DNA of 29,278 bases from a virus (IMGVR_UViG_2778261180_000001); one strand, 5' to 3'; counted from the first letter of the stretch, positions 13,776 to 29,278 are shown. Made by a program: numbers and translations. The notes: a model not told the origin generated them from the sequence alone.

Positions 13776-14468
13776 ATGTCTAGAGAAGGCTCGTTGGACT
13801 TATTGCAAGAAGTTGAAGAAAGTCTTGACATAATGAGACAGACACAGCATATCAAGCCTGTAAAAGTCAAAGCTATTTTGGAAAACTTACGAAGTTCCTT
13901 AGAGTATCTCGCTAATGATACCTATGATAAATATATTTCTCCACGCAGTAATGATGAGCGCCCCAAAATATATTTCCCTTACGGAAAAAAAGAGTTTATT
14001 GATAAATTTTTCTCAAAGACGCTAAAAATAAACCCACCATCATCTTCTCCATTATATAAAATTTTTACTTCTATACAGGATTATCACACTGGCGAATCTT
14101 GGTTGGAAATGATGTGTAATCTCACTAATGAAGTAAAGCACAGACAACCAATCCCCTTAAGAGAAGAGAGTTCTGTTAAAGACCTAAGTGTGAGCGTAGA
14201 TGGTTTTGGTTTAATCACAGCAGGAAGCTCAGCAAAAATTCTCTTTAAAAACAACCACATCAATGGCAAAAAATTAGAAGACTTTACTTTCGAAAATGGG
14301 AAATTACAAAGAAGTGGTAATGGTGTACCTTTAAACATAGTCATTACCGAAGAGAAAAAAATAAGATTCCATGGGAATGACCATGAAGTAATTCCTTTCA
14401 TTGAATCATGCCTTATTAAAATCAGAATTTTTATTATCGAAGCCTATAATGAGTTAGATAAGATTTGA
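13776..14468 (+). CDS. Hypothetical 230-aa protein in an AT-rich moron, antisense to the late operon (candidate lysogen-expressed cargo, possibly defence or exclusion)
   Basis: ATG at 13776 preceded by AAAGGAGA. The gene and its flanks (about 13560-14640) are markedly more AT-rich than the phage backbone. I recognise no family. The position between Rz and cos is the slot occupied by bor in lambda. Confidence 0.6.
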   Translation: MSREGSLDLLQEVEESLDIMRQTQHIKPVKVKAILENLRSSLEYLANDTYDKYISPRSNDERPKIYFPYGKKEFIDKFFSKTLKINPPSSSPLYKIFTSIQDYHTGESWLEMMCNLTNEVKHRQPIPLREESSVKDLSVSVDGFGLITAGSSAKILFKNNHINGKKLEDFTFENGKLQRSGNGVPLNIVITEEKKIRFHGNDHEVIPFIESCLIKIRIFIIEAYNELDKI

Positions 14469-16871: not shown

Positions 16872-17267
16872 CTAACCTCGCATGTCAAAGCCAGATTTCT
16901 GAAAATCTCTGTAGACTTCCGGATTGTTGAAGGCCGGAAATTTGGCTTTATGAGCTGCGGACTTTATCGCTTCGCAATAGGCTTTATCACCGTTACTGGT
17001 AGATATTTTTAACGCCGTGCCATCCTGAGAGAATTCCATATGCAACCTGCATTTTTTCCCTTTCCAGTTATGCGGCTCATCAAGTTTGGCATTAATTGCA
17101 GCTCTGATTCCCCGCGCTTGCGCCCCCCATTCATCCTGATCATCCCAGCGTCCTGAACTGCAACTACCTGTAGCAGTAGTTTTGTGGCAATCTGAAGGGT
17201 GTAAAGGTGTGCATCCCGCAACAAAACTGACCCAAAAAGTCAACATAACGATTTTCTTTAATCCCAC
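16872..17267 (-). CDS. Lipoprotein with a TolA C-terminal (TolA-III)-like domain
   Basis: GTG start with a GAGGAG Shine-Dalgarno; signal peptide and lipobox (MGLKKIVMLTFWVSFVAGC). The C-terminal part (KKCRLHMEFSQDGTALKISTSNGDKAYCEAIKSAAHKAKFPAFNNPEVYRDFQKSGFDM) resembles the E. coli TolA C-terminus as I recall it, and is paralogous to the next gene. Confidence 0.7.
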   Translation of the reverse strand: MGLKKIVMLTFWVSFVAGCTPLHPSDCHKTTATGSCSSGRWDDQDEWGAQARGIRAAINAKLDEPHNWKGKKCRLHMEFSQDGTALKISTSNGDKAYCEAIKSAAHKAKFPAFNNPEVYRDFQKSGFDMRG

Positions 17268-17417: not shown

Positions 17418-17846
17418 TCAGGGTTTAAAATCCAGCACCCCATTTTGAAATACTTTATATACTTCCGGCGAAGGGGGGGCAGGTATATCAGCATTCTTTA
17501 TCGCATTCATCGCTTCACGACATAAATCGAGGTCTCCACTTTCTCTTTTAACCTCCAGTAGAAGGCCATTCGGGGCCATATGCATTCTCAGTGTACACTC
17601 TTTTCCTGAATACTTACTCGCATCCCCGAACTGTTTTTCGATGGCGCTCTTGATTTGATGGGCATACAGACGGATATCCTCACTAACATCAGAAGTACGT
17701 TCAGATGAACTCACATACTGTGTCTCTATTGCTTTATCGGAGTAATATGATGTACGGTCATGATAATTTGTCGATACAGCATCAGTGCACCCGATAATAA
17801 TCCCACTAATAATCAACGTAAGAATTGATGCGCTACGAAAACCCAT
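17418..17846 (-). CDS. Lipoprotein with a TolA C-terminal (TolA-III)-like domain, paralog of the previous gene
   Basis: ATG with a GAGGA Shine-Dalgarno; lipobox IIGC. C-terminus YAHQIKSAIEKQFGDASKYSGKECTLRMHMAPNGLLLEVKRESGDLDLCREAMNAIKNADIPAPPSPEVYKVFQNGVLDFKP closely resembles the TolA-III segment ...AGQIKSAIESKFYDASSYAGKTCTLRIKLAPDGMLLDIKPEGGDPALCQAALAAAKLAKIPKPPSQAVYEVFKNAPLDFKP (recalled). Confidence 0.7.
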   Translation of the reverse strand: MGFRSASILTLIISGIIIGCTDAVSTNYHDRTSYYSDKAIETQYVSSSERTSDVSEDIRLYAHQIKSAIEKQFGDASKYSGKECTLRMHMAPNGLLLEVKRESGDLDLCREAMNAIKNADIPAPPSPEVYKVFQNGVLDFKP

Positions 17847-18379
17847 TTTTCCTCACATATGTCATATAGTAAAGGATTATATATACCGTTGTTTTGGACG
17901 CTCAAACAGCGAATCAGATCAAATAAAACGCACATTTGTTAACATTTACACAAAGTCTGCGTGGGATATTCTGAAAGAATATCCATAATGTGGAGAGAAT
18001 CTATTGAAGTGCATGGTGCCGGGTGCCTCCCGGTGAATTCAGTACCAGCACCTGAATCCGCGATTATCCCATATACCTACTCGCTGATTGCCCCTCCGCA
18101 CAGGGGGATTCACCATGCCAGTTTCTTTTAACAAACTCCCCGCAAACCAGAGAACAGTCAACCGCCTGAATTGTGAAGTATTTAAAAATTTCTCCCGCTA
18201 ACTGATACCCGGCTAACAGTCTGGCGTTTTCTTTTTCAGCAACGGGAAAGCAACAACCACCACACCCGCCACCAGCACACCGTCAGCCAGCACTGACATT
18301 ATCCGGCTGCTGCAATGCCATTCACAAAAACAGTAAGCAATCACTTTTTACCGTAACAGGTGATAATCCAGATATGTAT

Positions 18380-18843: not shown

Positions 18844-18920
18844 TGGCGCGCTGTACTGGATTCGAACCAGTGACCGATTGCTTAGAAGGCAATTGCTCTG
18901 TCCGGCTGAGCTAACAACGC
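18844..18920 (-). tRNA. tRNA-Arg (anticodon UCU)
   Basis: Manual fold of the reverse complement GCGTTGTTAGCTCAGCCGGACAGAGCAATTGCCTTCTAAGCAATCGGTCACTGGTTCGAATCCAGTACAGCGCGCCA gives a 7-bp acceptor stem, D-stem GCTC/GAGC, anticodon loop CTTCTAA, T-loop TTCGAAT and a CCA end. Confidence 0.8.
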
Positions 18921-19025
18921 TGAATACCGATAATGGACCGCCATCGGGGACCCGCCCCCCCCCCGCACCAACAACCCTGTTATCGTGTCGTCTGCTCTTC
19001 CTGATAAGCTCATGGCGGTTTGTGA

Positions 19026-19101
19026 TGGTGGCCCTTGCTGGATTTGAACCAGCGACCTGGCGATTATGAGTCGCTCGCTCTCACCACTGAGCTAAAGGAC
19101 C
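19026..19101 (-). tRNA. tRNA with CAU anticodon, most likely tRNA-Ile2 (lysidine) of the ileX/ileZ type; tRNA-Met not excluded
   Basis: Reverse complement GGTCCTTTAGCTCAGTGGTGAGAGCGAGCGACTCATAATCGCCAGGTCGCTGGTTCAAATCCAGCAAGGGCCACCA folds as a cloverleaf with anticodon loop CTCATAA. It is very similar to E. coli ileX as I recall it. Confidence 0.8.
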
Positions 19102-21845: not shown

Positions 21846-22097
21846 TTATTCTTCTGCAAAAGCTGAAAAGCCTGCTTTTATTCCGATCTCTTTCAGTGCC
21901 TGTAATGAAGTGACAAACTCACCTTCGCGCAAGATAAATCCGTCTGTCACTCGACCATCCACAAAATTAATTAACGCAGCCCCATTCTTTCGCAAACACA
22001 TAATGCGGTAATGACTAACAAGATTTCCATTTTCAACGCACACCGCATAGAGGCCATCTTCACAAAAAATTTTACGCAGTTCTTCGATGTTCATCAT
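21846..22097 (-). CDS. Rem-like small protein (Qin-prophage type)
   Basis: 83 aa, MMNIEELRKIFCEDGLYAVCVENGNL... Assigned from length and position next to hok and the DUF968 gene, as in Qin. The sequence match is from memory and not verified. Confidence 0.45.
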   Translation of the reverse strand: MMNIEELRKIFCEDGLYAVCVENGNLVSHYRIMCLRKNGAALINFVDGRVTDGFILREGEFVTSLQALKEIGIKAGFSAFAEE

Positions 22098-22313: not shown

Positions 22314-22469
22314 TTACTCCTCAGGTTCGTAAGCTGTGAAGACAGCGACCTCCGTCTGCCCGGTTCGGATTCGTACCTCGCAGAGGTCTTTCCTCGTTAC
22401 CAGTGCCGTCACTATGACGGTTAAACAGATGACGATCAGGGCGATTAACATCGCCTTTTGCTGCTTCAT
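22314..22469 (-). CDS. hokD: Hok/Gef-family type I toxin (membrane-depolarising peptide)
   Basis: MKQQKAMLIALIVICLTVIVTALVTRKDLCEVRIRTGQTEVAVFTAYEPEE is the classical Hok family sequence; AAGGAG lies 9 nt upstream. An in-frame 19-codon upstream extension (MLDTCRLASYVPKGKEKQA) is present. Confidence 0.85.
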   Translation of the reverse strand: MKQQKAMLIALIVICLTVIVTALVTRKDLCEVRIRTGQTEVAVFTAYEPEE

Positions 22470-23540
22470 AGCCTGCTTCTCCTTGCCTTTCGGCACGTAA
22501 GAGGCTAACCTACATGTGTCTAGCATGAAATTGGCCTCAGATTAATGTTAAGCGTCTTGCAGGACGCGTAATGTTAACTGGGGCTTTTCTCTATCTGCCG
22601 TTGGTGTTCATGCCCGAGGCAGATAGCCTCAAGCACCCGCAGCCATTCTACTTAACTACCGTTACCTCGCCAATGTGAAATCAGTCAGAAAGGCGATCCA
22701 TAAGAACAATAGCAAGACAATAAATCGCCATTACAGCCGTAATAGCCAGCGCACATTTGAGAACCAGCACCACAACCTCCTGTATTGGACGTACACCAGT
22801 CCTGATGAATATGAGGCTGTCTCGTCAGTGATTCAATACAACTATTGGGTATAGTTTCTCTGATTTTTTCTGTGGAAATGGGGCTCAACCACTAGTCATT
22901 TAATACGCAAAGTCCGACACAAGCTAACCTTCTAGTCCGCTTTGAGCGATGAGCGGACATCGACTTTAAAAAACACTAGCGTAAACAGGAAGGCAGTTAT
23001 GATCCAGAATGAATACTCACTACCTCTTTGACTAAAATGATGATAAGTGCTCATTTGATGATAATTAACATGTTTTTTAATAATTAAAGCTAACATAATA
23101 ATTTAACGAATATTCTTTGCTTTCTGAATAATAAACCTAGAGCAAACTAAATGACATCACCAGGACTTAACACCATAGGGTTGGTTTCGAATATTCTTGG
23201 CGTGATATTAATTTTTCTTTTGATTACCACAATCCTCTCATAATGAGGGAGTGTCACTGGCATTGGAAGATAATACGCAATTGAATGATGGAACTACTGT
23301 CAAATAAAAGAACTTAAAAACAAAAAAAGAAGTATATTTACAATATCTTTCGTATACTTAGCGTTAGCATTAATGTTCACGGATTCGTATTGCAATTCTT
23401 ATCAATTCTACCTGACTTGCAAATTTAATTGACTCGTAACATCTGCAACCCCACATTTAACAAAAAGCAGATAGAATAATTGAAGGATATAGTCTAGCTA
23501 AGTTAAATGTGGGTGCGTTTTATTTTACATCAATATATTT

Positions 23541-24563
23541 TTAATTTACAAAACCGAAATCCAGACACTTTTTATAGCTGTTAGGGTGAAGATCTTTAAG
23601 GTCTTTTAAAAAACCTTTATCAAGTGTTAAAATCAAAGTGTCTGGCATATTTAGAGAAATAACTATTAGAAAGTCAAATATGTCATTTTTTCGTAATTTA
23701 CGACCATTTTTATATGCATCCTCAACCTTGCTCATTAGAAAGCTCAACGAATTCTTAGTAAGCCCACGAGCGCCAGAAATCCCCTCCTCCATTTCTTTCA
23801 GGTAGTTATCAACTACTGATTCGTGTTTTTTTTTGCAGGCAAGGGATATTGGATTCTCCATATATTTTTTAAACTTTTTATCAAAATTATCATTTTTTAT
23901 ACTATCATACAGATTTTTGAGTCTGTCTTGGCTTCCGGAAATGTTAACTGTGTCAGTTTTAATCATATGATAGTTGACATGAAAAGCATGTAGGAGTCCG
24001 ATAAGCATGGTTTCAAAAGCTTTCAAAGCTGATTGCTGCTCATTTCCATTAATATATCCATTCCGCAACTCATCTTTAAAGAAGTCTAAAATTAATTCCA
24101 TATTAGATTCAAGTAGAGTCTGCACAAGACTAAGTTGACTTTGATTTTGTACATCGTTATCAAACTTGTATCCATCTTCTCTAATAACCTCAAACAAACC
24201 AGAGACAACCAGTATGAGTATGAACCTATAAAACTCAGCCTCTCTAGATATTTTTAGTGCTCTAACATTATCAATAATATCTTTTACTTCGTCTATTTTG
24301 TCTGAAAAATGCAACCTATAAAGAAATTCATTTGAGATTGGAGTATGACCAATGCTAATTAGTTCAATATTTCCGTTTATGATTGGGCTAATGCATTTTT
24401 TTACAGCCCCTAAGTCATTGCAATATTTAGAGATCACTTCTATGAGTGATGGTGTCGTAATGGATAATTTGAATTGATCTATAGGGGAGTTAATTATTTT
24501 TTGGTTTGTCGACAGACCAACTAGTGAGTAAAGAATATTTGTATCAATTATCATCCTGCTCAT
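23541..24563 (-). CDS. Hypothetical 340-aa protein in an AT-rich island; the N-terminus is faintly PIN-like (candidate novel defence or exclusion gene)
   Basis: ATG at 24563 with an AAGGAG Shine-Dalgarno; begins MSRMIIDTNILYSLVG. The whole 22.9-24.7 kb block is much more AT-rich than its flanks. No confident family assignment. Confidence 0.6.
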   Translation of the reverse strand: MSRMIIDTNILYSLVGLSTNQKIINSPIDQFKLSITTPSLIEVISKYCNDLGAVKKCISPIINGNIELISIGHTPISNEFLYRLHFSDKIDEVKDIIDNVRALKISREAEFYRFILILVVSGLFEVIREDGYKFDNDVQNQSQLSLVQTLLESNMELILDFFKDELRNGYINGNEQQSALKAFETMLIGLLHAFHVNYHMIKTDTVNISGSQDRLKNLYDSIKNDNFDKKFKKYMENPISLACKKKHESVVDNYLKEMEEGISGARGLTKNSLSFLMSKVEDAYKNGRKLRKNDIFDFLIVISLNMPDTLILTLDKGFLKDLKDLHPNSYKKCLDFGFVN

Positions 24564-24762
24564 ATAAATGCTCCTTTTTGAACGGTTGATTATTGTTATA
24601 TCACATATCAATGCGCATTAGCATAGTGATTGTATTGTAACGTCCGCTTCTGGCACAAAGCGGACAACCACGCCAGATCTACCCTGTGCCATGAAAAATG
24701 AGAATGTCAATTCACTCCTGAACTAATGCTTTTTAATCTAGTAACGTCTAAAATACCTAACA

Positions 24763-25164
24763 TTATCCCTGATAAAATGCCAGTATGCGCTGCATAACTT
24801 CACTCATCCGGCACTCGCGACAGATTATGTTTAGGCGACTGTCGTAGCGACGTATTTCTCCATCAGGTAACGACCAGATAAGGTCCGGATCAACCACAGC
24901 TGTTTTCTTCACCTTTGCCCTCGATAGTTTTTTGCGGGCGTTTTGCCAGTCCTTACGCGCCTGTTCAGACGGGAATAACCCGTAGCCGGAGTTGTATACA
25001 TCGCCACTGGCTACCAGCTCTCTGGCAAGAACGCTCATCAGATATCTAGTCGCACCTGTTTTAGCTTCCAGTTGCCGTAACGTCTCACGACCGCTCTGGC
25101 GCACGAGTTCCACCACCTGCCCTTTAATTTTTTCCCGCTCTTCTTGTGTAAAAACTTTTGCCAC
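24763..25164 (-). CDS. Hypothetical 133-aa protein
   Basis: GTG start with AGGGGGA upstream. Lies between the replication gene and the AT-rich island. No family recognised. Confidence 0.4.
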   Translation of the reverse strand: MAKVFTQEEREKIKGQVVELVRQSGRETLRQLEAKTGATRYLMSVLARELVASGDVYNSGYGLFPSEQARKDWQNARKKLSRAKVKKTAVVDPDLIWSLPDGEIRRYDSRLNIICRECRMSEVMQRILAFYQG

Positions 25165-25204: not shown

Positions 25205-25768
25205 TTATCCTCTGAAACCAGGCGGAATTTCTGTATCCGGTTCAGAAATATGATTCATACAACGCTGTACAGGTGAACGTCCCAGGCGGATGACCAGTTC
25301 GTCCCATTTTTCGCGGAGTTTTGACGGGCTCATGATGTTTTTTACCCAGAATTGATCTCGCTGTACCCGACCAAACATTTCGCAAATTTGTCTGTGGCTT
25401 CTGCCATCCAGCATCCGCATTGTGCGCACGTCATTGGCCCAGGCTGTCCAGTTAGGCTCTTTTGGTCGCATGATCTCTCCATCGTCGCTGGCAGCCTGTT
25501 CGTAAAGGTTCACGATCCGCCCCCAAATCCACTGCGCACACGCCAAATCCTCCCTGCTACCCCACTGGCGTTTTTTCGCACTAAACACAACCGCGTCGGG
25601 GTTCCGGGTTAAAAAATCCTGTTCAGCGGTCTGCGGGTCCGGTTGCGAAGCTTCCGGACGAAAAGTGTTTTTATTCTCTGTAGTAATCTCTGTTGTATTC
25701 TCTGTAAGATCATCAGGCCATTTTGACCCGATGACATTGGGTCGTTTTGAACCAATGGAGCGTTTCAT
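25205..25768 (-). CDS. C-terminal part of the replication initiator, carrying a DnaT-like C-terminal domain; in a different frame from the N-terminal part
   Basis: The C-terminus ...RCMNHISEPDTEIPPGFRG matches the E. coli DnaT C-terminus (...VSEPDSQIPPGFRG, recalled). The N-terminus of this ORF (MKRSIGSKRPNVIGSKWP) is a translation of the iteron repeats. Confidence 0.5.
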   Translation of the reverse strand: MKRSIGSKRPNVIGSKWPDDLTENTTEITTENKNTFRPEASQPDPQTAEQDFLTRNPDAVVFSAKKRQWGSREDLACAQWIWGRIVNLYEQAASDDGEIMRPKEPNWTAWANDVRTMRMLDGRSHRQICEMFGRVQRDQFWVKNIMSPSKLREKWDELVIRLGRSPVQRCMNHISEPDTEIPPGFRG

Positions 25769-26147
25769 TTTGACCTGATGGAGCGGCGCATTTTAAACCG
25801 ATGGATTCGCTCAATTTGCCACCATCTAAAAGCTCGCTCCCGTAGTTGATCGTGTAGAAATTGGTCATATCGCGCTTTGATTTATTGAGCTTTTCACAAC
25901 GCAAAAGCCCCAGCGTTTTCAGACTTGCAAACGCGCGCTTTAACGTTGACTCTGACCAGAATGGGAACTGTTCCAGCCATTGTTCCGTTGTGTTGTAAAT
26001 CCAGCGAACACCATCACATTCCATGCCGGAATTGGTATCTCTCAACCAGTAATGCAACTGCTGCAACACAATGGCTTCATTTAAGCCAATCTTCATCGCA
26101 AGCTGTGTGTTTATAACCAGTGGGCGTTCAGCAAAAAGAAGGCTCAT
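25713..26147 (-). CDS. N-terminal part of the replication initiator (replisome-organiser, lambda-O-like N-domain)
   Basis: MSLLFAERPLVINTQLAMKIGLNEAIVLQQLHYWL... resembles phage replisome-organiser N-domains. The ORF runs into the iteron block and stops at 25713. Start is uncertain (ATG 26147 or TTG 26201). Confidence 0.5.
   Translation of the reverse strand: MSLLFAERPLVINTQLAMKIGLNEAIVLQQLHYWLRDTNSGMECDGVRWIYNTTEQWLEQFPFWSESTLKRAFASLKTLGLLRCEKLNKSKRDMTNFYTINYGSELLDGGKLSESIGLKCAAPSGQNETLHWFKTTQCHRVKMA
25727..25830. repeat. Iteron-type direct repeats (putative phage origin) inside the replication initiator gene, followed by an AT-rich stretch
   Basis: Seen directly: four to five copies at roughly 20-bp spacing of an ATTTTGACC-GATGGA-like unit (cattttgacccgatga / ttttgaaccaatgga / ttttgacctgatgga / ttttaaaccgatgga). 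An AT-rich segment with repeated ATTCTCTGT follows at about 25660-25720. Confidence 0.6.
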
Positions 26148-26649
26148 AATTCCATCCAGCTTTTTGTTTGTATTGCTGTCGATACGCAAGTTTGAAAGCA
26201 ATTGCTTTTTCTATAAGTTCGTCAGTTTCACGATCCACTACGGCAGGATCAGCAAAAAGCAGTCCGGACTCCACCACATCGCCATATTCTTTGTTTAATC
26301 CGGCGATCATGTACGTGATGCTTTTTCCGTCACTAATTTCACGATACAACCTGAAATCATTAATCCGGATAGCCTCCATAATTGCAGGCACTAGCGCCGT
26401 GAACTTTTCACGCTTATCCCTAGTGTCGATAGCCTTCCAGCGTTCGAATATCTTCACTCGATTAACGCCAAGCGCTCGCTGATCAACCGCGCCACCTTCA
26501 TCTGTGACACGCTGAACATCGATGTTCGGGCGCTCTTTCAAAGCCCAGAATGCTTCAGTGATTAATATCGTCGCCTGCTCCTGTGTCATTCCTGGTCGAC
26601 ATATCCAGGCATCCAGAGCCTCACGAGCCTGTTCAGGAGTGATTTTCAT
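26128..26649 (-). CDS. Hypothetical 173-aa protein in the cII / YdaT position, downstream of the Cro-like gene
   Basis: ATG at 26649, starting 11 nt after the dicC-like stop. The function is suggested by position only. Confidence 0.4.
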   Translation of the reverse strand: MKITPEQAREALDAWICRPGMTQEQATILITEAFWALKERPNIDVQRVTDEGGAVDQRALGVNRVKIFERWKAIDTRDKREKFTALVPAIMEAIRINDFRLYREISDGKSITYMIAGLNKEYGDVVESGLLFADPAVVDRETDELIEKAIAFKLAYRQQYKQKAGWNYEPSFC

Positions 26650-26860
26650 TGTTCAACCGCCCCGCCCGCTTCGTCTTACGATATTCGTCATAAACCTTGG
26701 GATCATACAGAAGCTCGCCGCCAGATGCCTCCTGTAGACGCATCGCGCGACCTTCAGGAACCAGCTCTTGCCATTGAGAAACAGCAGATGGGTCAACGCC
26801 AGCAGCTTTCGCTACTTTGGCTTTCGTACCGTAAAAATTAATTACGTCTGATTTAAACAT
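26633..26860 (-). CDS. dicC: Cro-like HTH regulator (DicC / YdaS-type)
   Basis: ATG at 26860 with a GGAGG Shine-Dalgarno gives MFKSDVINFYGTKAKVAKAAGVDPSAVSQWQELVPEGRAMRLQEASGGELLYDPKVYDEYRK... Divergently transcribed from the DicA homolog. Confidence 0.7.
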   Translation of the reverse strand: MFKSDVINFYGTKAKVAKAAGVDPSAVSQWQELVPEGRAMRLQEASGGELLYDPKVYDEYRKTKRAGRLNNENHS

Positions 26861-26937
26861 CGCACCTCCAATATTGAGTTTTCTCAATGCTAATCACTCA
26901 AGGAATCTCAAGTCAAGGGTTATTAAGATATCTAAAT
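26861..26937. promoter_or_regulatory. Divergent promoter / operator region between the dicC-like and dicA-like genes
   Basis: 77-bp intergenic region containing the palindrome TTGAGttttCTCAA and a repeated TCAAG motif. Function is inferred from the divergent repressor / Cro-like arrangement. Confidence 0.45.
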
Positions 26938-27345
26938 ATGAACGAGAAAACTTTAGGTCAACGCATTAGAGAAAGACGTAAGCAGGTAGGCTTAAGTCAA
27001 AACGGTTTAAGCAAAGCTGCTGGCGTATCTGGCTCATCAATTTCATTATGGGAAAGTGACCATACAGCCCCGCGCGGGCAAAATTTGCATCGCCTCGCCG
27101 AGGTATTGCAATGTTCACCAACCTGGATACTGTTTGGCGACGAGGACAAAACACCAGCTCCCCCTGTTTCACTCGATAGTGCCTTAGACTTATCGGAAGA
27201 TGAGTTAGAGATGCTGCGTTTGTATCGCGCACTTCCTAAATCAGAGCAACAAGCACAACTCAGCGAACTCCGCGCCCGCGTTGAGAATTTTAATCGCCTG
27301 TTCACCGAGCTATTAGAGGCTCGCAAACGCAACAAGCATCAATAA
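26938..27345 (+). CDS. dicA: DicA-type HTH repressor (Qin immunity repressor)
   Basis: MNEKTLGQRIRERRKQVGLSQ...LAEVLQCSPTWILFGDEDK...QLSELRARVENFNRLFTELLEARKRNK matches E. coli DicA (...LSKVLQCSPTWILFGDEDK...MRARVKNFNKLFEELLKAR) as I recall it; same 135-aa length. Confidence 0.85.
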   Translation: MNEKTLGQRIRERRKQVGLSQNGLSKAAGVSGSSISLWESDHTAPRGQNLHRLAEVLQCSPTWILFGDEDKTPAPPVSLDSALDLSEDELEMLRLYRALPKSEQQAQLSELRARVENFNRLFTELLEARKRNKHQ

Positions 27346-27537
27346 TCATCCCTTCACAAAATTTTAAAGCCTTACATTTCAATGTATTGGCTTTATCTTG
27401 CGCCAATACTTGAGTTTTCTCATCAAAAAACCTTGACGAAAAATAATGAGAAAACTAAATTACTTCCATCAAGACACCGCACGGTGTTCTCAGCAAACAG
27501 TTCCGCTACCCCGGCGTTAAGGGGAAATGAGGTCAGC

Positions 27538-27693
27538 ATGGATACTATCGATCTTGGCAACAGCGAATCTCTGGTATGTGGCGTGTTCCCCAACCAGGAC
27601 GGTACGTTCACCGCGATGACGTATACCAAAAGCAAAACGTTTAAAACCGAAAATGGTGCCCGTCGCTGGCTGGAAAGAAACTCAGGTGAGTGA
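27538..27693 (+). CDS. ydfA: YdfA-like small protein
   Basis: MDTIDLGNSESLVCGVFPNQDGTFTAMTYTKSKTFKTENGARRWLERNSGE, 51 aa, directly downstream of dicA as in Qin. Confidence 0.8.
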   Translation: MDTIDLGNSESLVCGVFPNQDGTFTAMTYTKSKTFKTENGARRWLERNSGE

Positions 27694-27694
27694 T

Positions 27695-28270
27695 ATGGAT
27701 TTCGACACAATCATGGAAAAGGCTTACGAAGAATACTTCGAAGGCCTTGCCGAAGGCGAAGAAGCTCTCAGCTTCAGTGAGTTTAAACAGGCACTCAGAA
27801 TAAGAATGTGCTCTCACAATGACGCGGAGCACAAATATGAGAAGCAAAATCAGACCGCAGAAAATTTTGTTCTGGAACCCGGAGAAACGCTTTTCAAAAT
27901 TCCCGTTACGTGCCCCATTTGCGGTTTTACATCAGAAGAACTTGACGACTCCTGTAACAATCAGGAAACAACCAAGTATGTCGAAGATGATACCGAGTGC
28001 GCACGAAGAACGATTATATCCACGAGTCCAAACTCCAGGACCAATAAATCTCACTTTGAGAGGGTGATTAATCCACTCCCCCAAACCAATAAAAAAGATG
28101 CCGGAGGACAAAAAACCCAATGGAACAACGGGATATCTGTCAAAAAAAGACGTTCCATTAAAGACAAACAACGCAGCGCCAACAACTGTAAGCGCTTTAT
28201 ACCAGTAATCAATTTTCATGTTCTTAAGCGGATTTATTGGTGGTTGCGACATTGCTTAATGAATCCTTAA
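27695..28270 (+). CDS. YdfB/YdfC-like protein as one continuous 191-aa ORF (the two are separate small ORFs in K-12 Qin)
   Basis: ATG at 27695 with an AGGTGAG Shine-Dalgarno gives MDFDTIMEKAYEEYFEGLAEGEEALSFSEFKQAL... (YdfB-like N-terminus), continuing through a CPICGF motif to 28270. Confidence 0.6.
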   Translation: MDFDTIMEKAYEEYFEGLAEGEEALSFSEFKQALRIRMCSHNDAEHKYEKQNQTAENFVLEPGETLFKIPVTCPICGFTSEELDDSCNNQETTKYVEDDTECARRTIISTSPNSRTNKSHFERVINPLPQTNKKDAGGQKTQWNNGISVKKRRSIKDKQRSANNCKRFIPVINFHVLKRIYWWLRHCLMNP

Positions 28271-28529
28271 AACTGTGGTGATTTTAAGGATACCACCTCG
28301 CCTGACGTGGTTAAAAGCAGGCACACAACACGAAAGCGCACGGCGAAGTTCGTCTCACTGTACGGTGTCGTTAAATTTAATTCGACCGTGCGCTTCCGGT
28401 TGTGGCAACCCGCGAAATGGCGCGGCGGTAAGTATGGCGGGGTTATTCCTTCCCCGTTGAGGACACCGAGTTGTCAGGTTGACCATACGCTTAAGTGACA
28501 ACCCCGCTGCAACGCCCTCTGTTATCAAT

Positions 28530-28587
28530 TTTCTGGTGACGTTTGGCGGTATCAGTTTTACTCCGTGACTGCTCTGCCGCCGTTTTT
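28530..28587 (+). ncRNA. dicF: DicF small RNA (antisense regulator of ftsZ and other mRNAs)
   Basis: TTTCTGGTGACGTTTGGCGGTATCAGTTTTACTCCGTGACTGCTCTGCCGCC followed by TTTTT is essentially the E. coli DicF sequence as I recall it. It lies between the ydfB/C-like ORF and dicB. Confidence 0.7.
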
Positions 28588-28756
28588 AAAGTGAATTTTG
28601 TGATGCGGTGAATGCGGCTAAGCGCACGCGGAACAGTTAAAACCAAAAACAGTGTTATGGGTGGATTCTCTGTATCCGGCGTTAATTGTTAACTGGTTAA
28701 CGTCACCTGGAGGCACCAGGCACTGCATCACAAAATTCATTGTTGAGGACGCGATA

Positions 28757-28945
28757 ATGAAAACGTTATTACCAAACGTTAATACGTCTGAAGGTTGTTT
28801 TGAAATTGGTGTCACTATCAGTAACCCTGTATTTACTGAAGATGCCATTAACAAGAGAAAACAAGAACGGGAGCTATTAAATAAAATATGCATTGTTTCA
28901 ATGCTGGCTCGTTTACGTCTGATGCCAAAAGGATGTGCACAATGA
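28757..28945 (+). CDS. dicB: Cell division inhibitor DicB
   Basis: MKTLLPNVNTSEGCFEIGVTISNPVFTEDAINKRKQERELLNKICIVSMLARLRLMPKGCAQ, 62 aa, GAGGA Shine-Dalgarno, downstream of dicF. Confidence 0.85.
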   Translation: MKTLLPNVNTSEGCFEIGVTISNPVFTEDAINKRKQERELLNKICIVSMLARLRLMPKGCAQ

Positions 28946-29133
28946 ATTCAGCATTTGCGCTTGTTCTGACAGTTTTTCTTGTTTCCGGAGAGCCAGTTGA
29001 TATTGCAGTCAGTGTTCACAGGACAATGCAGGAGTGTATGACTGCAGCAACCGAACAGAAAATTCCCGGTAACTGTTACCCGGTCGATAAAGTTATTCAC
29101 CAGTATAATATCGAAATCCCGGCAGGTCTTTAA
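28942..29133 (+). CDS. ydfD: YdfD-like protein (Qin lysis-inducing protein)
   Basis: MNSAFALVLTVFLVSGEPVDIAVSVHRTMQECMTAATEQKIPGNCYPVDKVIHQYNIEIPAGL, 63 aa. Its ATG overlaps the dicB stop as ATGA. Confidence 0.8.
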   Translation: MNSAFALVLTVFLVSGEPVDIAVSVHRTMQECMTAATEQKIPGNCYPVDKVIHQYNIEIPAGL

Positions 29134-29278
29134 AACAGTTCCGTAATAAATATCCGGTTTCATTCTTATATGCCAGCAATGGCAGGGATTTGTTCATCCT
29201 TAAATCTGTCATGAGGTTAAAACGTAACCGGCTCATTTAAACCGTCTGGTCTGTTTCCTCCGGCTCTACAAAAATAAT

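Follow-up and report, generated by a model that had tools for sequence, protein, structure and literature searches.

The dicBF operon has been described in varied prophages (PMC5069750), and in Escherichia coli K-12, where it lies in the Qin prophage, it is regulated by DicA and Rem, with Rem derepressing the promoter dicBp (PMC10448788). Lambdoid prophages also carry, close to the repressor gene, membrane-protein genes that are antisense within the early-left operon: in the K-12 Rac prophage the order is racR, ydaG, ydaF (DUF1391), sieB (antisense), the small RNA (sRNA) kilS and kilR, and in lambda sieB is antisense and lies beside N. SieB has an abortive-infection phenotype, and the known exclusion proteins of prophages are small and located in the inner membrane: P22 SieA has three predicted transmembrane domains, and HK97 gp15 is likewise a predicted inner-membrane protein (PMC10461980). 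We compared these systems with a stretch of viral DNA of 29,278 nucleotides (IMGVR_UViG_2778261180_000001; hereafter the window, whose numbering is used throughout), which holds a dicBF module near its end. The order of genes there is dicA, ydfA (DUF1391), a shortened ydfB, a gene on the opposite strand that we call X, the DicF sRNA and dicB. We report that X (27932-28252, minus strand) is a real, conserved gene under purifying selection that encodes an uncharacterised protein of 106 aa, and that by its position it is a non-homologous occupant of the slot taken by sieB elsewhere.

X is the main gene of a 517-bp cassette (27796-28312) which stands in for a 396-bp segment of K-12 Qin containing the end of ydfB and ydfC, and it is transcribed from the strand opposite to the dicBF operon. 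Comparison with the K-12 Qin region by blastn showed 97.7% identity at 26370-26761 (the ydfX region and the DicC C-terminus), essentially complete divergence at 26762-27463 (the dicC N-terminus, the control region and dicA), 96.4% identity at 27464-27795 (ydfA and most of ydfB), no DNA match at 27796-28312, and 96.9% identity at 28313-29223 (the leader, DicF, dicB and ydfD). The swap therefore runs from ydfB codon 34 to the leader upstream of dicF. In contrast to K-12 Qin, the window lacks ydfC, its ydfB is cut after codon 34, and the antisense gene X is found in that spot. K-12 YdfC had no counterpart in any of the six frames of the window even at permissive settings, where tblastn gave only chance matches (best E = 0.88). 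Among 5426 complete E. coli genomes, 2942 carry the K-12 type of cassette and 796 the type seen in the window. In one relative (P0239) a separate ydfC homologue, fused in frame, comes after the X cassette, and the two are therefore different units. Judged from these alignments, we read the K-12 and window arrangements as alternative cassettes. The slot with the X cassette and the dicF region has been shuffled among Qin-like and Rac-like phages (P0239, L016 and L017).

The case for X as a gene rests on its conservation. A database search returned 60 full-length homologues, down to 34% identity, and full-length relatives of 100-110 aa with 34-58% identity were found in Yersinia enterocolitica, Herminiimonas and Reinekea. 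Two motifs, DYWYKA and GLGEWINHPL, show little or no variation among the homologues, and a profile search extended the family to 489 cluster representatives at E<=1e-3. When IMG/VR was scanned twice for diverse X loci, nearly all matches were identical copies from E. coli, the remainder being three distant contigs. Between lineages, dN/dS in the X frame is 0.12-0.19 and substitutions are concentrated at the third codon position of X, while the plus-strand frame opposite X shows dN/dS of 1.3-1.7 for close pairs. An AlphaFold2 model of X (pLDDT 86) has three long helices and a beta-hairpin, the helices corresponding to three predicted transmembrane segments, and the distribution of Lys and Arg suggests an N-in, C-out topology in which the two conserved motifs would face the cytoplasm.

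X has usually been missed by annotation. It was unannotated in five close genomes that we inspected; the PGAP annotation of three close relatives reads "ydfB, incomplete", with nothing marked in the remainder. One genome instead annotates an open reading frame (ORF) of 191 aa on the plus strand, most of which mirrors X, and one copy truncated by IS1 annotates X itself. In the protein collection the cluster of the mirror ORF holds 1798 sequences and that of X 141.

The position of X was the same in every prophage context that we recovered: it comes directly after the repressor gene, in convergent orientation, and is antisense to the early-left genes. These contexts comprised three Yersinia contigs, four lambdoid prophages with cI-S24 repressors and two Rac-like Escherichia prophages with KilR. 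In the two Rac-like prophages (L016 and L017), X and sequence 85-87% identical to the dicF region of the window (28253-28739) lie upstream of pRha/ASH and KilR. The flanks also correspond in DNA sequence: those of Rac ydaF and kilS align to those of ydfA and dicF in the window at 80-87% identity. Downstream of kilS, Rac (L018, 7250-7503) is 80% identical to window positions 28577-28741, downstream of DicF, and kilS thus appears to hold the position equivalent to dicF. Like X, sieB in Rac, lambda and P22 is a membrane-protein gene, antisense in the early-left operon and close to the repressor. In Rac the likeness goes further, with a DUF1391 gene on one side of sieB and an sRNA and a division inhibitor on the other, which mirrors the ydfA, X, DicF-dicB layout of the window.

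This layout suggests a function. We tentatively propose, by analogy, that X is an exclusion or defence protein expressed from the prophage, since it fills the sieB slot of Rac and lambda in the same antisense orientation and since known exclusion proteins such as P22 SieA are small inner-membrane proteins. While the prophage is repressed, X would be expressed without the need for dicBp and would act at the inner membrane for the benefit of the lysogen, most likely in superinfection exclusion or abortive defence. With SieA, X shares its small size, predicted membrane-spanning structure with three helices, presence in a temperate phage and what appears to be a control region of its own. Several observations weigh against this proposal. 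X and SieB (PF14163) are not linked by a Pfam match, an hhalign comparison of the X family with Rac SieB gave a probability of 0.4%, and Rac SieB is longer, at 162 aa against 106. No relation of X to P22 SieA or HK97 gp15 was found in the Pfam, PADLOC or PHROG libraries. More broadly, X matched no defence, PHROG, Pfam or NCBIfam model and no PDB sequence, PADLOC recognised neither X nor three distant relatives, and fold searches returned generic helical bundles only. The X family, unlike SieA and gp15, is also found outside phages, where its members lie beside a DUF5677 gene (Herminiimonas), in runs of small ORFs (Reinekea) or beside an AAA_14 ATPase gene, so that a phage-specific role is not required.

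The expression assumed for X is consistent with the sequence in front of it. An upstream block of about 85 bp (28253-28336, minus strand), kept in all enterobacterial lineages in an alignment of six lineages that included Yersinia, contains a Shine-Dalgarno sequence (AAGGA), a candidate -35 element (TTTAAC, 28315 to 28310) and a candidate extended -10 element (TGgTATCCT, 28295 to 28287). The block may act as a promoter, and its conservation fits an autonomous unit expressed from a repressed prophage. A point against this is that the candidate promoter is a poor fit to the consensus (7/12 plus TGn) and was missed by a consensus scan of the region for promoters and terminators, which also returned no convincing terminator for X. 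The block includes a perfect 10-bp palindrome, ATCCTTAAAA-N9-TTTTAAGGAT (28263-28291), which overlaps the Shine-Dalgarno sequence and putative -10 element of X and includes the stop codon of the plus-strand ORF. Folds of single sequences show the palindrome in five lineages, where compensated changes maintain it. RNAalifold did not recover it in the X leader, owing to register shifts of one base and to a distant sequence that lacks the palindrome. It may be an RNA hairpin or a DNA operator.

The plus-strand ORF of 191 aa opposite X (27695-28270) is composite and falls into three parts. Codons 1-34 (27695-27796) are the N-terminus of YdfB, to which they are 100% identical, and this is the only part that matches YdfB or PHROG 2061. 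Codons 35-79 are specific to the cassette and include a conserved core, Y (27869-27931), that ends in CPICGF. Codons 80-191 (112 codons) run codon-on-codon antisense to X. We read the ORF as a by-product that includes a small real piece: the YdfB N-terminus, a short CPxCGF core and a stop-free mirror of X. The core is likely to be translated. Its pattern, …GE..l..IPxxCP(I/V)CGF, is kept in four lineages with synonymous changes at third positions, and its pN/pS is 0.49 in the frame of the plus ORF against 0.63-1.2 in the other five frames.

A stronger version holds that the plus ORF is a genuine gene as well, with Y translated from the early-left transcript, so that X and Y would form a nested antisense pair whose frame is kept open by selection. 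Y would be fused to the YdfB N-terminus in the window and would be the first cistron, at the ydfA start site, in the Rac-like phages; its tail might matter as protein or might keep ribosomes on the transcript across the cassette. Beyond the conservation of the core, this version draws on an in-frame Met 34-42 codons upstream of the X overlap in each lineage, on the Rac-like prophage L016, where the plus ORF starts in the leader shared with ydfA, and on a distant viral contig (L135) with the same layout and CPRCG at the junction. It also draws on the plus frame being free of stops over 107 codons opposite X in the deeply diverged E. coli, P0013 and Yersinia lineages. Given local codon usage, a tail without stops has a probability of about 0.05 per lineage and about 2e-4 for the three jointly, which is unexpected for a pure by-product and counts against reading the tail as one. 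However, the dN/dS of the tail exceeds 1 in close pairs, and the tail shows no conservation beyond what X imposes. In L017 a stop directly follows CPVC, two natural E. coli alleles have a stop in the tail and an intact X, and relatives of X of low GC content have 5-12 stops in the plus frame. Homologues of the plus frame number 24 proteins, all from close kin, against the 489 clusters of X, and the core itself is only about 20 codons long, with weak statistics. We therefore regard a genuine Y gene as rather doubtful, and a functional tail as possible. It is unlikely, a little more so, that X both lies inside and opposite a translated CPxCGF ORF kept open through the codon choice of X and represents a new exclusion or defence family in the sieB slot.

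X might instead be a membrane toxin or a holin-like effector, possibly one half of a toxin-antitoxin-like pair, with Y or the convergent transcript keeping it in check. Alternatively, its transcription might be an antisense brake that limits leaky read-through from dicBp into the toxic DicF, dicB and ydfD. Its size and three helices resemble those of class I holins. Other features that would suit such a role are the convergent transcription of X, fully overlapping with the early-left operon, the conserved palindrome over its Shine-Dalgarno sequence and putative -10 element, the ParD-like genes in the small-ORF runs around the Reinekea homologue, and hok/sok-type modules on the same prophage. 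However, X ends in ...VVKFF and has no charged C-terminal tail, and it lies in the immunity region rather than in the lysis cassette, where relatives have the holin gene essD annotated at the equivalent lysis site. No holin or toxin family was matched in Pfam, NCBIfam or PHROG, and the best viral fold match to a holin, with E 0.5, was not significant; on the grounds of tail, location and family we rejected X as a class I holin. In non-phage genomes X stands alone beside unrelated genes. The purifying selection on the X protein is strong, which argues that its product matters and not just the act of transcription. A toxin, holin-like or brake function is for these reasons quite unlikely.

The weakest alternative is the original prediction that the ORF of 191 aa unites ydfB and ydfC, K-12 ydfB and ydfC being frameshift fragments of this ancestral uninterrupted gene: the ORF is indeed continuous, it begins with the 34 residues of YdfB, PGAP calls it once as a hypothetical protein and PHROG 35040 is built on such calls, but the union fails for want of any YdfC correspondence in the window, which was the outcome named beforehand as fatal to the idea, and it is further opposed by the unmatched 396-bp K-12 segment, the commoner K-12 type of cassette, the presence of both units in P0239 and the unconstrained tail, all of which make it extremely improbable. 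That X is a real gene and that the ORF is not ydfBC are, as a joint claim, highly probable.

The surrounding module is readily recognised. It is almost certainly the immunity and early-left (PL-equivalent) module of a Qin-like lambdoid prophage, and the dicC, dicA, ydfA, DicF, dicB and ydfD genes that had been listed for it were all found where predicted with Pfam, NCBIfam and Rfam models. The fuller explanation, which adds the cassette swap and X as a membrane protein expressed in the lysogen, we consider reasonably probable. On the minus strand, dicC (26633-26860) encodes a Cro-like regulator of 75 aa (Pfam P22_Cro, 4.5e-16; NCBIfam DicC, 165 bits against a cutoff of 130), annotated as DicC or Cro/CI in relatives. 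Its product is 69.7% identical to that of K-12 by blastp, with an identical C-terminal half and a different N-terminal helix-turn-helix. The DicA-family repressor (26938-27345, plus strand, 135 aa) matches the NCBIfam DicA model over its full length (239 bits against a cutoff of 101) as well as Pfam HTH_3. It has no Pfam Peptidase_S24 match, and so lacks the S24 cleavage domain, and at 57.5% identity by blastp it is a different allele from that of K-12. Downstream on the plus strand follow ydfA (27538-27693, 51 aa; DUF1391 in Pfam, 96% identity to K-12), DicF (28531-28587, with terminator stem and T-run), dicB (28757-28945, 62 aa; Pfam DicB, 1.9e-40, 100% identity to K-12 DicB) and ydfD (28942-29133, 63 aa; DUF1482, 96.8% identity). 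DicF matches the full RF00039 model (positions 1-52) at 28531-28582 with 72.5 bits, against a gathering score of 48, and E 2.2e-14. It differs from K-12 by a single base, and the alignment is nearly identical onward to the start of dicB. DicF, dicB and ydfD lie on one strand, and the order and orientation of genes in the module are as in K-12.

The immunity genes are where the correspondence to K-12 gives way, and for them the description of the locus as the same module does not hold, given the divergence at 26762-27463 and the low identity of DicA and DicC. Together with the diverged operator region, that low identity suggests that the immunity specificity probably differs from that of K-12. 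The divergent dicC-dicA control region (26877-26952) contains a candidate operator, an inverted pair of TGAGAAAACT at 26877-26886 (minus) and 26943-26952 (plus), and a second inverted pair at 27413-27422 and 27447-27456 flanks a candidate dicBp, the PL-equivalent promoter, upstream of ydfA (27413-27461, plus strand; putative -35 TTGACG at 27433 and -10 TAAATT at 27456). The window contains six matches to TGAGAAAACT against 2.0 expected, a number reached in 2 of 100 shuffles, and four of the six fall in the immunity region. Results of the consensus scan were at chance level, and so, taken on its own, was the candidate dicBp match. The pairs may serve as DicA-type operators in the layout described for DicA, in a sequence context unlike that of K-12, and the position of the candidate promoter would agree with that of dicBp upstream of ydfA (PMC10448788). 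In this arrangement, a non-cleavable DicA-family repressor and a Cro-like DicC are transcribed divergently, and the repressor would presumably also silence dicBp. Once derepressed, as by Rem in K-12, dicBp would drive ydfA, the ydfB-derived ORF, DicF, dicB and ydfD, whose products would stop cell division, change metabolism and lyse cells, as shown in K-12. A rem antirepressor gene is encoded here too (21846-22097, minus strand); it is annotated rem in relatives and its region is 92.5% identical to K-12.

The prophage as a whole is Qin-like, as had been proposed: in those close relatives that were inspected, the equivalent prophage adjoins rspB, the gene beside which Qin lies in K-12, and rem and hokD lie upstream in both. 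Flanking phage genes that are remnants in K-12 are complete here, among them the late genes and a YdaT-family or CII-like gene of 173 aa (26128-26649, minus strand; Pfam YdaT_toxin, PHROG 163), of which K-12 YdfX is the truncated N-terminal 93 residues (97.8% identity over 93 aa). Positions 1-29223 are 99.86% identical to a prophage of strain APEC E19025, which continues with the tail-tip gene J and a tail fibre gene on one side and with an exonuclease gene, xis, int and rspB on the other. Over the late region the two differ by 15 substitutions and no indel, and the E19025 late genes carry no pseudogene flag; the tail tip lies beyond the window. The late genes joined to the dicBF module thus equal those of intact relatives, which bears out the expectation of a full late region, and of the suggestion that the prophage is apparently intact, this part stands. 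The copy in the window is itself damaged, with a frameshifted replication gene and a repeat end right after ydfD.

The frameshift lies in the O-like replication initiator gene (25205-26147, minus strand; PHROG replication initiation O-like), where a 23-bp deletion at 25765 splits into ORFs of 162 and 187 aa a gene that is intact at 321 aa in relatives (annotated as such in L001 and L003); a sequencing error is possible. The gene contains an array of iteron-like repeats (CATTTTGACC variants), one unit of which equals the deletion, and the 187-aa ORF restarts with a Met right behind the deletion. A few bases short of the exonuclease start codon, at 29224, phage sequence gives way to a 55-bp multi-copy repeat end (29224-29278) that replaces the start of the exonuclease gene which follows ydfD in relatives. 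None of the 5426 complete E. coli genomes contains this segment. A 40-mer from it occurs in 33 stretches (L021-L053), nearly all at or near contig ends and 31 of them from the draft genome of Escherichia sp. MOD1-EC7003. The segment is probably the end of an insertion sequence, and in one stretch (L034) the sequence beside the repeat looks, on reading, like the N-terminus of an IS21-family transposase. Two contigs from metagenome-assembled genomes, labelled Segatella copri and Clostridiales, also carry the repeat.

The module is widespread on related phages. At least 80% of a 3.3-kb module query is present in 392 genomes, and 77% of the module is covered at 98.2% identity in mEp460_ev081, a lambdoid phage of the mEp460 type. 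The deposited 45-kb Escherichia phage genome HannyBb (PP925841) covers 20.2 of the 29.3 kb of the window, matching 26600-29223 at 99.5% and the late genes at 95-96%. It differs from the window, with its repeat end and 23-bp deletion, in having an uninterrupted ydfD-exonuclease-xis-int order and a single O-like gene. In its annotation a mirror ORF of 205 aa is called and X is not. HannyBb carries the whole module, so functional phages with dicBF are plausible and not rare.

Elsewhere on the prophage, a sok antisense RNA (22464-22638, minus strand; Rfam, 115 bits) lies beside hokD, forming a type I toxin-antitoxin module placed as in K-12 Qin. K-12 relBE had no match in the window, where homology to K-12 stops at 22483. 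A Ren-like exclusion protein (24763-25164, minus strand; PHROG 142, 1.9e-44) is encoded beside the replication genes and is another candidate for a lysogen-protecting function. Between hokD and a DUF977/Ren-like gene lies a hypothetical gene of 356 aa (23541-24611, minus strand) with no PADLOC or PHROG match, and a hypothetical gene of 230 aa (13776-14468, plus strand) between terminase and the lysis cassette had no match in PADLOC. Two phage tRNA genes (18844-18920 and 19026-19101, minus strand) downstream of a Q-type antiterminator encode tRNA-Arg(TCT) and a tRNA with a CAT anticodon, which is Met according to ARAGORN and Ile according to PGAP in relatives; a 2-bp indel relative to APEC E19025 falls between them, at 18955. 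An sRNA of the STnc100 family (17957-18147, minus strand; Rfam, 114 bits) lies between the Q antiterminator region and the lysis genes. Two ORFs (16872-17267 and 17418-17846, minus strand) that lie between the tRNAs and the holin are possible morons; relatives have them annotated as TolA or TolA C-terminal-domain proteins.

The presence of a dicBF module on a full-length Qin-like prophage is in itself ordinary: hundreds of E. coli genome sequences have it, as does at least one deposited phage genome. The main yield of the analysis lies in its corrections: ydfB and ydfC are not pieces of a longer gene, and most database entries at this locus are the mirror ORF. What is new is that the sieB slot of the dicBF operon is occupied by a conserved gene for an uncharacterised membrane protein, which annotation usually misses, with an unusual stop-free frame antisense to it. 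The X family, with about 490 clusters, occurs at the lambdoid site for lysogen-protecting genes and is a candidate for a new exclusion or defence function. X lies within an operon that is actively studied for the biology of DicF and DicB, and its convergent transcription could affect DicF and DicB expression wherever an E. coli genome has the cassette, as about 15% do.

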